This document shows positions 378-44,885 of a stretch of 64,000 bases of DNA, one piece after another (positions within the stretch are counted from its first letter, which is position 1; the number at the start of each line of letters is the position of its first letter). A program made the position numbers and the translations under genes. Where the stretch lies: positions 179 through 64,178 of the forward strand of contig CAZDKL010000004.1 of assembly GCA_964506185.1 (NCBI GenBank). Direction: 5' to 3'. The notes under the pieces are model-generated. The model had not been told where the DNA came from, ran no database searches, and was given only the letters and a program-made list of their open reading frames with translations. Source of the DNA: an uncultured Candidatus Peribacteria bacterium (GTDB lineage: Bacteria; Patescibacteriota; Gracilibacteria; Peribacterales; Peribacteraceae).

Positions 378-469
378 TTGGAATCTAATTTGAATCTGGA
401 ATATGGAAGCTAGAATATGGAATATTATTCCAAATTCTAGATTCTAGATTCTAGATTCTAAATTCCAAA
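378..469. repeat. Simple-repeat hairpin forming an expansion segment inside the 23S rRNA
   Basis: The arm ttggaatctaatttgaatctggaatatggaagctagaatatggaat faces attccaaattctagattctagattctagattctaaattccaa. It lies between conserved 23S blocks (ggatttgcctcccggaatc ... ggtacaggaatattgacctg) that are ~150 nt closer together in E. coli. Confidence 0.8.
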
Positions 470-1852
470 ATGGTAAGGAACAGAGGCCGATAAAACTATC
501 AGCTAACACCCTCTGGTGATCTCCATGAGGTACAGGAATATTGACCTGTTGTCCATCGGTTACGCCTTTCGGCCTGGCCTTAGGACCGACTAACCCCACG
601 CCGATTTACGTTGCGTGGGAAACCTTGGGGATTCGGCGGGCAAGATTTTCACTTGCCTAGTAGTTACTCATGCCAACATTCTCACTTCCGTCCGCTCCAC
701 AATACTTCGCAGTACTGCTTCACTGCTGAACGGAACGCTCCTCTACTGCGACCTACTAATGTAGGCCACTCATTGCTTCGGTTTATCGTTTCGCCCCGAT
801 ACATTTTCGGCGCACGAATGCAATCGACCAGTGAGCTGTTACGCTTTCTTTAAAGGATGGCTGCTTCTAAGCCAACCTCCTGGTTGTCGATGCATTCGTA
901 CTACCTTTTCCACTGAACGATAATTAGGGACCTTAGCAGATGATTAGGGTTCTTTCCCTTTCGTCAACGGCAGTTAGCTGTCGCTGACTCACTCCCGATG
1001 CTGAAGAGTTGGTATTCGGAGTTTGTCAGGATTTGGTAGGTCGGAAAGACCCCCGCATCCAAACAGTAGCTCTACCCCCAACTGTATACATCGAGGCTGC
1101 CCCTAAAGGCATTTCGAGGAGAACCAGCTATCTCCGGGTTCGATAGGCTTTTCACCCCTAACCACAGGTCATCCCCCAGTCTTGCGGCACTGGTGGGTGC
1201 GGGCCTCCAATCGTGTTCCCACGACCTTCACCCTGCCCATGGTTAGCTCACCCGGTTTCGGGTCTTGCGCATGCGACTCAAAAATCGCCCTATTCGGACT
1301 CGCTTTCGCTCCGGCTTCGGCTTTTAGGCCTTAACCTGCCACATACGACAAACTCGTTGGCTCATTATGCAAAAGGCACGCCGTCACCCAATAAATTGGG
1401 CTCCGACTCTTTGTATGCATCACATTTCAGAGACTATTTCATCCCCCTTCCGGGGTGCTTTTCACCTTTCCCTCACGGTACTATCCGCTATTGATCTCTG
1501 TACCTATTTAGCCTTAGGTGGTGGTCCACCTAGATTCAGGCCGGATTACACGTGTCCGACCCTACTCAGGAAATCCCTACTGTGTATTACTTTTTCGGCG
1601 ACGGGGCTCTCACCCTCTTTGGCCGTCCGTTCCAGGATCGTTTGCCTAAAGTAAAAACAATCAGATATTGGGCTCCTACAACCATCCAAATTAATAATAT
1701 GGAATTTGGGCTGTTCCCTTTTCGCTCGCCACTACTAAGGGAATCTCTATTGATTTCTTTTCCTCTGTTACATGAGATGTTTCAGTTCACAGAGTGACCG
1801 TCTGGTCCTGTTTATGATTTCATTGAAGATTGATGATACTACTGATTCTTTG

Positions 1853-1912
1853 TTAGTGAGTAGTGAGTAGTGTGTAGGTTTCTACTACTCACTACCCACT
1901 ACACACTCGTTT
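1853..1912. repeat. Simple-repeat hairpin forming a second expansion segment in 23S domain I
   Basis: ttagtgagtagtgagtagtgtgtagg / ctactactcactacccactacacact lies between the conserved atgtttcagttc and ggtttccccattcgg blocks (~120 nt longer than E. coli). The 19-mer ttagtgagtagtgagtagt is identical to 17752-17770. Confidence 0.8.
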
Positions 1913-2099
1913 TCAAGGAAATAATAAACAGAACCAGACATCCTCCCATTACGGAGGACAGGTTTCCCCATTCGGAAATCCCCGGTTATAACGCCTGCCT
2001 AGCGGCTTACCGAGGCTTATCGCAGCTGGCCACGTCCTTCGTCGGAGTACAGAGTCGAGGCATCCATGTGATGCAATGAGTAACGTTCTTATGATGACT

Positions 2100-2203
2100 A
2101 TCGACAATCAACAATCAACACGCGCACTTCGTGCGCTTTCAACTACTCATAGTTGAATGTTGATTGTTGACAGTCCGCCAAAGGCGGACGTGTCGATTGT
2201 CGT
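2100..2203. repeat. Inverted simple repeats in the 23S leader
   Basis: cgacaatcaacaatcaaca ... tgttgattgttgacag ... gtcgattgtcg, plus the internal hairpins gcgcacttcgtgcgc and gtccgccaaaggcggac, lie immediately upstream (minus-strand sense) of the 23S 5' end. Confidence 0.6.
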
Positions 2204-2773
2204 TTTTTATCTGTTCACGTGTCACCCTCAAGGCGAGCAGGACATGCTCACACAAGATGTGACACAAAAATTGCATTTTTTTTGATCATACAAAGCTGGT
2301 ATATAAATTGTATGATCTCGGCCGGTGATCTAAATGACCGCAGGGGCGATTGAACACCGTAAAACCCTTCGACAAGCTCAGGGTTGTTTCTGCTTCGCAG
2401 AAACAAAAACGGGTGTTACGCACACCCGCAGAACTCGAGGAAATCCTCCCTTTTTTCAGGGTTTCGATTCCGGCGGCTGGGCGCAAAAACGCATAAAGCT
2501 AAGAGATTTTAGAGGCTGATTGGTTTCAGTCAAGAAAAAAGTGGCTTCCGGAGGCAAAAAAGTGATGTTTTTTGAGCTAACATCCGTAACTCGAAATGCG
2601 CCCTCCCCCCAGGGGTGGGGTATGGGCTCAGGGTGGCGGGCCGTCAGTATTGTGTCAGCCCTAAACACTTCGTCAATATCATCTCAAAATTTTCCGGCAT
2701 ATACCCCGACTTTTTGGCTTGTATTAGGACTGTTTGGCGTTCCACCCTCAAGCGGAACAGACTGCTTTTGAGC

Positions 2774-3520
2774 TTAATTAAGCCTTTTTCTTCCAACAAT
2801 CCCTTCAACAAAGAAAGGGGCATAAAAAGTACCTAAAATGTCCAATCCACCTTGTTGTTGAGCGAATAGAGCATCGTCAGCACTGCAACCGTTAAAGTAT
2901 CCTCCTCTCCCTTCAAACTGACGATATATCGACATCCAAGACTTAGAAGCAAATTGAGTAATTGGATTCCCATCCCAGCAGAAGTTATCAGCAATTAAAT
3001 GAATACCACCTAGTTTTAGAACTGCATTAACCTGCTCGGAAACTTCAACAAGATTATTAATGTGATGATGTACTGCAATACCAGTTACAACATCAAAACT
3101 ATTCGGTCCAAACTCTTTTAATATTTGTTCTGCAGGTAAATTAACAAACTCGCCACTTACTCTATTGTCATTCGACAATAGAAAATATGGAGGCTCTACT
3201 AAATCACAACCGGTAATATGAATCTTCTTGACCGAATCGGTTACTACTGATCGTATTATCAGATCATTCTTGTATCCCATACCACAACCTAAATCTAAGA
3301 TGCGAACTTCCTCAGGCGACTCATAAGAATGTTTTGCCAAAATTTTCCTGACTCTTCTCGGCATTGAGGGTTTAAGAATCTCGGCCCTCATGCGCCAAAA
3401 TCCTGGATGACACAATTTATTCCTGACTTCGTATGATTTTACTATCTGTCGCTGAACATCTGTTAAACAATTCTCTTCCAAAGACATAGGAGGAAGATTG
3501 TACACGAGGAATGCTGTCAT
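2774..3520 (-). CDS. Class I SAM-dependent methyltransferase
   Basis: Rossmann motif I ILDLGCGMGY, followed by ITGCDL and FDVVTGIAVHHHI (motif IV-like). The ORF opens with TTG at 3532; the first ATG is at 3520. Confidence 0.75.
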   Translation of the reverse strand: MTAFLVYNLPPMSLEENCLTDVQRQIVKSYEVRNKLCHPGFWRMRAEILKPSMPRRVRKILAKHSYESPEEVRILDLGCGMGYKNDLIIRSVVTDSVKKIHITGCDLVEPPYFLLSNDNRVSGEFVNLPAEQILKEFGPNSFDVVTGIAVHHHINNLVEVSEQVNAVLKLGGIHLIADNFCWDGNPITQFASKSWMSIYRQFEGRGGYFNGCSADDALFAQQQGGLDILGTFYAPFFVEGIVGRKRLN

Positions 3521-43793: not shown

Positions 43794-43821
43794 AGCTAGT
43801 CTTTATTAGCTAGCAAATTCC

Positions 43822-43909
43822 AAATACGAAATCCGAAACAAGCACGAAATTCGAACTAACAAACAGTTTCGGATTTTAGAATTTCTTATTTCGGATTTGT
43901 TTCGTATTT
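43822..43909. terminator. Bidirectional simple-repeat hairpin between convergent dgt and M23 peptidase genes
   Basis: aaatacgaaatccgaaacaagcacgaaattcgaa ... tttcggattttagaatttcttatttcggatttgtttcgtattt. Confidence 0.65.
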
Positions 43910-43921
43910 CGAGCTTCGCAT

Positions 43922-44761
43922 TTAATATTCCGGAAGAAACTTCAATGGATCAACATGCACCCCTCCTCTTATAACTTCTAAATGCAGATGCGGACCGGTT
44001 GAAAGCGGGCCTGCACCTCTTGAGCCCGGACGTCCTCCACTGAGCGCAATGGTGTCACCACGATGTACAACTTGACCTTGTTGTACCAAGAACTCACTCA
44101 CGTGACCATAAAGAGTTGCTCCACCGGGATGTGAGATGATGATGTACTGGTAACCGCTATCTCCCTCATATAAAACTTCAACTATTCCTTCGGCCGCTGA
44201 TCGCACCTCTGAATTTTGGAGAACAGGAATATCAACTGCTTCATGTACCAATCCAAATCTCTTCTTATACTCTTCGTCATGGAAGAGGGCTGAGATTCCT
44301 TCCGAAGGCTCCAAAGGCCAACTGAGTCTGAGCGGAACACTTGGATCTCCACTTGCAGCAAGAGCTCGGATCTCAGCTGCCTTAATTTCAAATAATGCAG
44401 TTCTTATATACTCTTCGGAAACTCTTCGATCCTCTAATAGATTTAGAAGCTTGGTCCTAGCATCTTGCCATTCTCTTTGCTGTGCTTCTGACCAGTCTTG
44501 ACCGTATGTTGCTTTTTCATTTTCAAGAACATCTAACTGATATCTAAGAATCTCTTCCCTTCTTTCCAAAACTGCAATTTCTTGACGCTCGCGTTGTATA
44601 GTTGATTCAGCATGCTGAACTGATGCATTGAATGGGCCTCCCACAGATAATTTACCTGAGTTGACCATTACTTGAAGTCCAACGAATAAGCCAACTGTTC
44701 CGCCAATTATTGCAAGTACTCTAAGGGGCTTATGAATATGGATGTTTATCTCAAGCATCAA
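43922..44761 (-). CDS. M23 family peptidase with an N-terminal TM helix and coiled coil (EnvC-like)
   Basis: HEAVDI...HPGGATLYGHV...GPHLHLEV, preceded by a coiled coil. Confidence 0.85.
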   Translation of the reverse strand: MMLEINIHIHKPLRVLAIIGGTVGLFVGLQVMVNSGKLSVGGPFNASVQHAESTIQRERQEIAVLERREEILRYQLDVLENEKATYGQDWSEAQQREWQDARTKLLNLLEDRRVSEEYIRTALFEIKAAEIRALAASGDPSVPLRLSWPLEPSEGISALFHDEEYKKRFGLVHEAVDIPVLQNSEVRSAAEGIVEVLYEGDSGYQYIIISHPGGATLYGHVSEFLVQQGQVVHRGDTIALSGGRPGSRGAGPLSTGPHLHLEVIRGGVHVDPLKFLPEY

Positions 44762-44813
44762 GAAATTATAGCAGATTATCAGGATTATTGCTATTGGCGC
44801 AGACTGAGGTTTT

Positions 44814-44885
44814 AGGTCAAGTAAGTAAGGTATGTCATGTACGTTGCCTACCTAACTTACAATACGTACATGACCTACCTGACCT
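44814..44885. repeat. Simple-repeat hairpin between two minus-strand genes
   Basis: aggtcaagtaagtaaggtatgtcatgtacgt ... acgtacatgacctacctgacct. Confidence 0.8.

Follow-up and report, generated by a model that had tools for sequence, protein, structure and literature searches.

Why should one stretch of a bacterial chromosome carry hairpin after hairpin whose arms are themselves tandem arrays of a short word, and why does the word change from locus to locus? The stretch (hereafter the window) comprises 64,000 nt of contig CAZDKL010000004.1 (positions 179–64,178; assembly GCA_964506185.1) from an uncultured Candidatus Peribacteria bacterium. An initial annotation had listed 14 such hairpin loci and suggested intrinsic terminators, a mobile hairpin family or a local mechanism of slippage plus template switching as their possible origin. 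Our results indicate that the hairpins are neither a terminator set nor a single mobile-element family. With about even confidence, we favour the reading that they are inverted pairs of heptanucleotide microsatellites that are renewed in place by slippage, have their arms matched by a DNA-level process, are occasionally copied elsewhere and are kept where a stem-loop is tolerated.

All 14 loci fold strongly (minimum free energy z-scores of −4.3 to −11.3 against shuffles), and an independent inverted-repeat scan also recovers them. Under strict criteria (i.e. arms ≥16 nt, complementarity ≥78% and loop ≤60 nt) the window contains 12 hairpins, whereas 40 dinucleotide shuffles average 1.4 (maximum 5); hairpins with period-7 arms number nine in the window and zero in any of the shuffles. 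The comparison with shuffled sequence that had been proposed as a check thus bears the hairpins out. The words had been described as 4–9 nt long; the repeat unit is specifically 7 nt, with a few units of 6, 8 or 9 nt. Tandem Repeats Finder returns period 7 (or 14) for most arrays, and strict tandem runs have periods of 7 (seven runs), 14 (five), 8 (two), 9 (one) and 15 (one), with none in the shuffles. There are dozens of diverse words, mostly A+T-rich, and the G+C content of the arms is 25–47%. Arms made of tandem arrays hold for most of the listed loci and not for 9891–9952 and 18924–19021, which are GC-rich and have no tandem arms. Several of the listed hairpins are longer than first drawn (364–482, 1800–1939, 42592–42722 and 43804–43927), and one array pair, at 40369–40455, had been missed.

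Homologues of the aldolase and of RpoB carry the names Candidatus Peribacteraceae or Peregrinibacteria, many of them from Tara Oceans and other marine metagenomes; the host is therefore a marine member of the Candidatus Peribacteraceae (Peregrinibacteria, candidate phyla radiation, CPR). Its RpoB is 72% identical to the counterpart in the closest genome, an 'uncultured Candidatus Peribacteria' metagenome-assembled genome. Period-7 hairpins occur at 0.95–3.3 per 10 kb in Peribacteraceae loci (1.4 per 10 kb in the window). As a control, 79 unrelated rpoB loci (1.43 Mb) yielded 305 hairpins, 14 of them with period-7 arms (∼0.1 per 10 kb), and five of these 14 sit in one Nostocales locus. Pooled counts of period-7 runs are 44 in 188 kb of the marine clade versus 6 in 1.41 Mb of unrelated rpoB loci. 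Two groundwater Peribacteria loci of high G+C content (55% and 59%) contain no period-7 runs, and a relative with 45% G+C contains many, plus 9-mer-armed hairpins. On our preferred reading, the hairpins would be a genome-wide trait of lower-G+C, mostly marine Peribacteraceae.

Given A+T-rich arms of low complexity on metagenomic contigs, chance, low-complexity composition or an assembly artefact had to be considered. We regard this explanation as refuted and give it next to no weight: dinucleotide shuffles contain no period-7 hairpins, the 1.4 Mb of control genomes have ∼0.1 per 10 kb against the 1–3 per 10 kb of Peribacteraceae loci, and contigs of the same population from other samples and sources are 99.95–100% identical across the hairpins. 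Since independent assemblies match through the hairpins, these are not assembly artefacts.

Syntenic loci were fetched from four to five related species, namely L085 and L089 (aldolase 93%, RpoB 95% identical); L087 and L093 (aldolase 91%); L091 (RpoB 88%); L096, L097 and L098; and L005. Six hairpin positions, hereafter slots, are filled in relatives: (i) the 3′ end of rpoB, where a heptamer-armed hairpin (4063–4139, minus strand) begins right after the stop codon; (ii) the spacer between the divergent superoxide dismutase (SOD) and FemAB-like genes (8949–8977); (iii) the interior of the FemAB-like coding sequence (CDS), with a heptamer-armed hairpin at 9121–9274 (plus strand; arms 9121–9158/9237–9274, loop 78 nt); (iv) 23S 'site D' (364–482, minus strand), where a basal stem (364–387/459–482) carries a heptamer-armed hairpin (392–424/426–458) at its tip; (v) the spacer between the divergent FtsQ-like and glycosyltransferase genes, with a heptamer-armed hairpin at 39699–39765; and (vi) the junction of a non-coding RNA-like segment with an HD-domain gene, where the 3′ arm of a heptamer-armed hairpin (42592–42722) reaches into the start of that gene.

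In these slots the position is conserved and the word changes. The rpoB slot is filled in all relatives, by AAGACGT in the window, AGGGCT in L089, AGTTTTT in L091 and AAGAGGG in L005. The FemAB-internal words across the window and its relatives are AGTTGAA (the window's own), AATTGAG/TCTCAAT and CAATTGA/TGTCAAT; those of site D are CTAGAAT, GGTAAGT and CAATCAA, the two arms in the window reading GAATATG and ATTCTAG. Between FtsQ and the glycosyltransferase, L093 shares the window's word (CTCACTA/TAGTGAG), and L096 and L098 carry 8-mers, one of which forms a hairpin with 37-nt arms matching at 35/37 positions. The words of the slot at 42592–42722 (AAAGTGA/ATAGTTA in the window) can be one base apart, with AAGTGGA in L097 and L098 versus AAGTGAA in the window. 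Averaged over six slots, the complementarity score of the arms is 19.4 within species, against 9.0 for left versus right arms and 9.5 for left versus left arms between species. The arms have thus diverged almost to background between species, yet are matched within each.

How the words change can be read from individual slots. At site D, the window and L089 have kept the basal stem and the tip (GGAA-TAAT-TTCC), and the mid-arm words differ. In L085 and L087 a perfect fourfold repeat makes up the right arm and faces a degenerate left arm, which shows independent homogenisation of each arm. In the FemAB-like protein, variable loops correspond to the two arms and a conserved segment to the 78-nt hairpin loop, and the alignment is kept on both sides of the hairpin as well as between its arms. 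These variable loops are present in all homologues, including high-G+C ones that have essentially no heptamer arrays at their loci. The mid-arm change at site D, the one-base word differences, the homogenisation of single arms, the FemAB loops and the half hairpin described below together point to turnover in place and not to replacement.

Further heptamer arrays occur within the FemAB CDS of relatives (L087 2168–2201 and 2331–2365; L085 1693–1727). One of them is an in-frame insertion of 21 nt (three units, seven codons) that encodes QSTINNQ; arrays in CDSs expand by multiples that preserve the reading frame.

The slot between SOD and FemAB is occupied in the window by an array (AAGTTAA/AAGTGAA) without its right arm, and by a two-armed hairpin in L085, L087 and L091. 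At least one of the one-armed arrays is thus half a hairpin. The other one-armed arrays lie at 3522–3607 (CCTATCAG/CCTATAAA, period 8 with a higher-order period of 23) between the ssb stop and a methyltransferase start, at 19217–19260 (AAACTAGC, period 7–8) on the 3′ side of yidC, and at 21296–21333 (hexamers CTAGCC/CTAACC); Tandem Repeats Finder supports the earlier description of one-armed arrays as real.

The 23S rRNA gene (1–2090, minus strand, its 3′ end cut by the window start) contains two of the hairpins. In alignment to Rfam RF02541, 115 nt replace 4 nt at positions ∼166–171 (site A) and ∼200 nt replace 18 nt at positions ∼1492–1509 (site D). The site A insertion (1800–1939, minus strand) consists of a stem (1800–1827/1912–1939) tipped by a heptamer hairpin (1854–1871/1884–1901, word TAGTGAG), and in both inserts a long basal stem (24–28 bp) stands at a helix tip with the heptamer hairpin on top. 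As extra helices at conserved 23S helix tips, the inserts resemble expansion segments or intervening sequences in form. Just 5′ of the mature 23S end lies a composite element (2096–2203, minus strand) with heptamer arms (CAATCAA, 2096–2119/2152–2175) and mini-hairpins, one of which is capped by C(UUCG)G (2122–2136). A search of the window and four relatives at Rfam gathering thresholds matched none of the hairpins; its hits were confined to rRNA, tRNA and a single group I intron. The intron lies within the 23S rRNA gene of L089 (10360–10614), and the equivalent part of the window's gene is beyond the window edge.

Both the site A extension and the composite element are missing in L089, and we considered these gaps as pre-insertion sites. 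Site A is extended in the window, L091 and L005, which makes a loss in L089 more parsimonious than an empty site, and the candidate was rejected. Presence and absence do vary elsewhere. The slot at 43804–43927, where a hairpin of loose arm periodicity (CGAAATC) separates convergent genes, is empty in L093 and holds CCCAAAT/GGGATTT in L097; the slot at 44812–44887, a hairpin with weakly repetitive arms directly after the stop codon of the FGase gene, is empty in L096; and a hairpin of L093 and L096 has no counterpart in the window. Slots are thus both gained and lost among relatives. The comparison of orthologous spacers that had been suggested earlier yields presence/absence differences and differing words, and the empty 23S sites of L089 are more simply deletions.

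Such differences are what one or more small families of non-autonomous mobile hairpins (REPIN-, MITE- or RPE-like) would leave behind, if mobilized by an enzyme encoded elsewhere, preferring certain slots (e.g. existing hairpins or gene ends) and diverging fast. Strings shared between loci point the same way. The shared strings reported initially are exact: a 19-mer at 1853 and 17752, a 23-mer at 15458 that equals the reverse complement of 38681, and a 12-mer at 8965, 42610 and 42624. Beyond these, the site A right arm (1883–1907) matches the FtsQ/glycosyltransferase hairpin (39740–39764) at 96% over 25 nt, including the irregular order of unit variants, and 42608–42644 matches the SOD/FemAB hairpin of L085 (1031–1067) at 94.6% over 37 nt. 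A 9-mer array within the cysS CDS (15450–15482, minus strand, TCCTCTGAT) exactly repeats, in reverse complement, an arm of the hairpin at 38681, and the hexamer array at 21305 matches the rpoB 3′ hairpin of L089. The composite element on the 5′ flank of the window's 23S gene is by eye ∼70–75% identical over ∼105 nt to an element in the 23S site D of L091, a match that takes in non-repetitive parts and the C(UUCG)G-capped mini-hairpin. Two hairpins of L005 have an inner core in common, and the in-frame CDS and rRNA locations resemble those of the Rickettsia RPEs. From these sequence matches, a component of dispersal or copying appears to exist beside local turnover.

Mobility as the general explanation nevertheless seems unlikely to us. 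Across loci the hairpins have no common core, conserved termini or target-site duplications; most slots are occupied in every relative; the mid-arm alone changes at site D; and the FemAB arms replace existing variable loops and add no discrete insert. No Y1/RAYT or other transposase is found among the window proteins, where the sole recombinases are two serine recombinases in islands free of the heptamer hairpins. The first of these islands (25200–36440, ∼11 kb, G+C 36–40%, below its surroundings) adjoins tRNA-Asp (36454–36530), encodes a serine recombinase (35015–36511) and a gp3-like DNA-packaging protein (32314–32667), and is missing from the syntenic relatives L085 and L087. The second, likely also integrated, runs from 51600 to ∼62100 next to tRNA-Trp (51594–51670) and encodes a serine recombinase (51605–53311), a Toprim-domain protein (53444–55342) and an Mrr-nuclease/helicase fusion (58302–61367); its sole hairpin is a perfect, G+C-rich one of 17 bp (53337–53397), and it has no heptamer arrays. 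Although the islands account for 37% of the window and for 3.5 kb out of ∼8 kb of intergenic DNA in it, all 19 period-7 arrays fall outside them (0/19 inside; p = 1.6e-4). Of the mobile hairpin family proposed initially, the strings and the composite element at non-orthologous loci thus remain in its favour, and the missing core, termini and duplications count against it.

Could the hairpins be selected at the RNA level instead? The heptamer hairpins were tried as intrinsic terminators, which the initial annotation held many of them probably to be, and were rejected: a terminator scan calls none of them, there being no T-runs and no G+C-rich stems, and many do not lie at gene 3′ ends. A canonical bidirectional terminator stands separately at 9968–10002. 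The hairpins are found upstream of start codons, between divergent and convergent genes, after stop codons (of rpoB and the FGase gene), within CDSs and within 23S, which agrees with the placements first noted. More generally, they might be stem-loops selected to end, protect or process transcripts (e.g. as RNase III sites), forming intervening sequences or expansion segments in 23S, with repeats as an easy route to long stems. The slots are kept over long divergence with the primary sequence left free; several hairpins start straight after a stop codon; the composite elements hold C(UUCG)G-capped mini-hairpins; and the 23S inserts stand at helix tips on long basal stems in a radiation where 23S insertions are common (PMC9297842).

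A structure selected as RNA should tolerate G·U pairs and not A·C. In 18 hairpins of known transcript orientation (in rRNA, CDSs and the rpoB 3′ end), arm positions comprise 355 Watson–Crick pairs, 10 G·U (2.7% of pairs), 8 A·C and 26 other mismatches. That G·U is about as frequent as A·C argues, in a small sample, that complementarity arises at the DNA level. Moreover, many hairpins are on the 5′ side of genes or between divergent ones, where a transcript would probably hold only one arm; close relatives have lost slots with nothing in their place; and one-armed arrays persist. Taken with the result of the terminator scan, this leaves selection on transcripts a rather improbable account of the hairpins as a whole.

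The arms are also polar. In 30/38 hairpins the 5′ arm contains G and is poor in C, and the 3′ arm contains C and is poor in G (p = 5e-4, with orthologues that are not independent). The polarity is the same on either strand, which places the G-poor arm beside the start codon of both genes in a divergent pair. Transcription-linked GC skew was considered as its cause and rejected by reasoning alone, as the predicted direction is opposite at divergent slots. At least five slots have a start codon no more than ∼16 nt from the end of the G-poor 3′ arm, i.e. those of aldolase (1 nt), SOD, the FemAB-like protein, the HD-domain protein and the glycosyltransferase (16 nt), and we could see by eye no obvious Shine–Dalgarno sequence upstream of rpoB, ssb, SOD or aldolase. 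A −10-like TACAAT is kept in the SOD/FemAB loop. All this would fit a single-stranded heptamer array as the functional unit, either a G-poor translational leader or a binding platform (e.g. for a cold-shock/OB-fold protein, with one bound every 7 nt), the hairpin appearance resulting from divergent genes that each carry one array around a shared promoter. There is a parallel in the TAACTGA arrays of Beggiatoaceae, whose commonest end point is 1 nt ahead of a start codon, and heptamer repeats are bound by CspB (PMC4679880). Hairpins in rRNA, in CDSs, between convergent genes and 3′ of genes are left unexplained by this account, as are the use of the same word in both arms and the co-variation of the arms; in addition, short spacers make closeness to start or stop codons nearly unavoidable. 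We consider it very unlikely.

Our preferred reading, i.e. microsatellite pairs remade in place, would work as follows. Each hairpin would occupy a long-lived slot in which its arms are continually remade. Slipped-strand mispairing at the level of units would spread or remove 7-nt variants, by which the word drifts and is homogenised. The arms would be kept complementary by a strand-symmetric DNA process, most likely intrastrand template switching (quasi-palindrome correction or arm-to-arm gene conversion), and an arm or a whole composite hairpin would occasionally be copied into another slot. Survival would be limited to sites where the hairpin is harmless, such as short spacers, solvent-exposed 23S helix tips that tolerate insertions in CPR, and, with the frame kept, protein linkers and variable loops. 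Should the hairpins have a function, for instance as a G-poor leader by start codons or a stable stem-loop in the transcript, it would be secondary. The sequences themselves show the excess over chance, the 7-nt period, kept slots with changing words, co-varying arms, strand-symmetric mismatches, the ectopic copies, and the absence both from the islands and of terminator features; neutrality and the molecular steps of slippage and template switching are what we infer. The reading accounts for (i) the 7-nt period; (ii) the conservation of slots with turnover of words; (iii) the co-variation of arms and the strand symmetry of their mismatches; (iv) half hairpins; (v) the restriction to long-resident DNA; and (vi) the location at rRNA helix tips and variable protein loops. 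The local mechanism named in the initial annotation is therefore the one that fits best, in that slots are kept, words change, arms co-vary and mismatches are strand-symmetric.

Several points weigh against it. The words at the rpoB 3′ end and between FtsQ and the glycosyltransferase share nothing between species, and insertion there is indistinguishable from complete turnover in place. The two FemAB arrays of L091 are not complementary, so the FemAB hairpin is not universal. The wobble test is based on just 18 informative mismatches, and the C(UUCG)G tetraloops of the composite elements look like design at the RNA level. Neither the strong polarity nor the copying step is explained by remaking in place itself: the irregular strings and the composite element at non-orthologous loci need copying, which the model merely accommodates. 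Finally, no copy-number variants of the arrays were seen among near-identical contigs of the population, in consensus assemblies that could hide variants in unit number; this suggests that slippage is not fast on that timescale.

A stronger proposal, which we put forward tentatively as possible and somewhat doubtful, is that a process specific to low-G+C Peribacteraceae writes self-complementary heptamer microsatellites into permissive DNA and matches their arms at the DNA level, and is thereby a source of rRNA expansion segments (23S sites A, C and D) and of in-frame protein linkers and loops, with words and composite hairpins jumping between slots. The process might be a peculiarity of the replisome or of repair, or an unrecognised hairpin-copying activity.

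The window has further arrays. A heptamer-armed hairpin with an inner AT palindrome (14404–14506, ATTGGCT) lies upstream of a gene for a large SLH-domain protein, and another (17749–17838, TAGTGAG then TAGTTGG) lies between the divergent csrA and aldolase genes and ends 1 nt ahead of the aldolase ATG. The 9-mer-armed hairpin at 38680–38759 (GAGGAATCA) has kept both its position and its word in L093 and L096. Two perfect convergent arrays at 40369–40455 (plus strand), G-rich GGGAACC ×4.6 and C-rich ATCCCCG ×4.9, encode an inter-domain linker within the glycosyltransferase CDS; they are complementary at just 5/7 positions per unit and amount to ∼60 nt extra compared with relatives.

A second dispersed family of hairpins is G+C-rich in an otherwise A+T-rich genome, is of the CCTCACCCCC...GGGGGTGAGG / CCCCTCTCC...GGAGAGGGG type and is found at gene 3′ ends. 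Its members are the two GC-rich hairpins without tandem arms, i.e. 9891–9952 between convergent genes beside the canonical terminator, and a cluster at 18924–19021 on the 3′ side of the aldolase gene that is kept in L087, together with ∼2595–2645 in the window, 5578–5694 in L096 and 5580–5745 in L093. This family may represent real terminators or a REP-like family.

Other structured segments were seen near the hairpins. A highly conserved, G+C-rich and structured-looking non-coding segment (42412–42570) lies between the laccase-like and HD-domain genes; it is near-identical in L093 (six-frame tblastx 92–100%), recognisable in L096, L097 and L098, has no Rfam match at the gathering threshold and is possibly a small RNA not yet described. 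In the csrA/aldolase spacer, ∼130 nt (17600–17730) are kept in L085 and L087; with several GGA motifs on the csrA strand, they could represent either a small RNA or a leader bound by CsrA. The 380-nt aldolase/yidC spacer contains a conserved G+C-rich segment (19090–19215) without an Rfam match, for which a 72-aa open reading frame (ORF) is called in relatives. At the position of the window's ssb, L005 carries ∼450 nt (14100–14575) of dense, G+C-rich, structured non-coding sequence with promoter-like and terminator-like ends and no Rfam match at the gathering threshold.

Besides RpoB (4138–8151), the window encodes SSB, SOD, the FemAB-like transferase, the large SLH-domain protein, CysS, CsrA, a class I fructose-bisphosphate aldolase, YidC, the RNase P protein and GatC/GatA. 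The gene rpoB is not adjacent to rpoC in the window. Residues ∼3–102 of RpoB (window 7850–8151) form a Lys/Ala-rich N-terminal extension, histone H1-like in appearance, and the length varies among near-identical strains (1338 aa for L086 versus 1360 aa for L085). Some 1.7 kb (48150–49876), with two small ORFs of unassigned function (48256–48732 and 48777–49355), are missing from the syntenic L093.

The initial annotation knew of no described family with this architecture; two precedents, in Xanthomonas and in Nostocales, now show it. Xanthomonas campestris and X. axonopodis have 70–75 pairs of convergent GGGAATC heptamer arrays per genome, for which stem-loops or cruciforms are possible (Rehm et al. 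2015, PMC4692102). The pairs are mostly intergenic; 83% occupy equivalent positions in both species, where length and sequence vary and the single or paired type is kept (PMC4692102). An explanation of the 7-nt preference by polymerase slippage is cited for these arrays in the same paper (PMC4692102). The window likewise has tandem 7-nt units, complementary arrays close together on opposite strands and positions that are kept while length and sequence vary, and its arrays at 40369–40455 (GGGAACC and GGGGATC on opposite strands) come close to GGGAATC itself. The difference is that a single G-rich, quadruplex-prone word dominates in Xanthomonas, whereas Peribacteraceae have dozens of mostly A+T-rich words that vary by slot and species; only 40369–40455 is of the G-quadruplex type. 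Moreover, Peribacteraceae belong to CPR, and their copies also lie within 23S rRNA and CDSs.

The Nostocales locus among our controls (L030, Desmonostoc) shows an identical hairpin architecture with periodic mismatches, at 2.2 hairpins per 10 kb, with the words CCCCAGT and TTGGTCA. We take these to be STRR1 and STRR2 of the short tandemly repeated repetitive (STRR) heptamers, which Mazel and colleagues reportedly described in heterocystous cyanobacteria in 1990. Small dispersed repeats are said, after work by Elhai and colleagues in 2008, to be nested within the heptamer repeats of Nostoc. We know of no report of STRR-type arrays inside rRNA genes. The Peribacteraceae arrays belong to another phylum and use words other than CCCCAGT, TTGGTCA and CAACAGT, and are not members of the STRR family. 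Heptamer over-representation in Nostoc is cited in a passage of PMC4692102, and only a few inverted pairs are reported for the GGGGAYT arrays of Anabaena (PMC4692102). Direct TAACTGA heptamer repeats occur in Beggiatoaceae, cyanobacteria and some Bacteroidetes, with one inverted case in 170 sets (MacGregor 2015, PMC4679880). They resemble the Peribacteraceae arrays in their 7-nt unit, intergenic location and frequent ending right before a start codon, and differ in being a single word in nearly all direct arrangement, whereas the Peribacteraceae arrays are chiefly inverted and use many words.

REP and REPIN sequences are short, dispersed intergenic palindromes with a conserved consensus and a linked RAYT (Bertels & Rainey 2011, PMC3116915). 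Their arms, like those of RPEs, are not tandem repeats. The window hairpins have no shared consensus, share words in part and lack a common core. No RAYT (Y1 transposase) was found among the proteins of the 64-kb window. Rickettsia RPEs have a family consensus of ∼100–150 bp and lie in frame in CDSs or in RNA genes. The window hairpins agree with them in their in-frame CDS and rRNA locations and differ in having no family consensus and in FemAB arms that replace variable loops instead of adding an insert. As for MITE hallmarks, no target-site duplications and no shared termini were found when filled and empty slots were compared by eye.

The passage of PMC9297842 that cites Brown et al. 2015 gives insertions of at least 100 nt in 77% of CPR 23S genes, and the insertions treated there are mostly 0.5 kb to several kb long and read as introns. 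The window inserts are likewise extra stem-loops at 23S helix tips, and differ as stems of 115–200 nt that are tipped by heptamer microsatellite hairpins like the intergenic ones. Template-switch mutagenesis at quasi-palindromes, on which Ripley in 1982 and Dutra and Lovett in 2006 worked, is said to make imperfect inverted repeats more perfect, on both strands. By analogy, this could match the strand-symmetric complementarity of the window arms; the process is known from individual sites in model bacteria and not as a means of maintaining repeat-armed hairpins throughout a genome.

In our literature search, no report of such heptamer arrays in a CPR lineage was found. The Peribacteraceae hairpins thus extend the poorly understood heptamer microsatellites of Xanthomonas, Nostocales and Beggiatoaceae to CPR, and their many words, conserved slots and several related genomes make word turnover and arm co-evolution directly readable. 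If the proposed DNA-level mechanism acting in place is true, it could bear on why 7 nt is favoured, on how long palindromes persist in bacterial chromosomes and on simple repeats as an origin of rRNA expansion segments and protein linkers. In practice, the hairpins can mislead gene callers, as several called ORFs run through them, and can disturb rRNA-based surveys of CPR. Compared with the systems described before, what is new here is the CPR host, the diversity and turnover of the words, the dominance of the inverted arrangement and the copies within 23S rRNA and, in frame, within CDSs.

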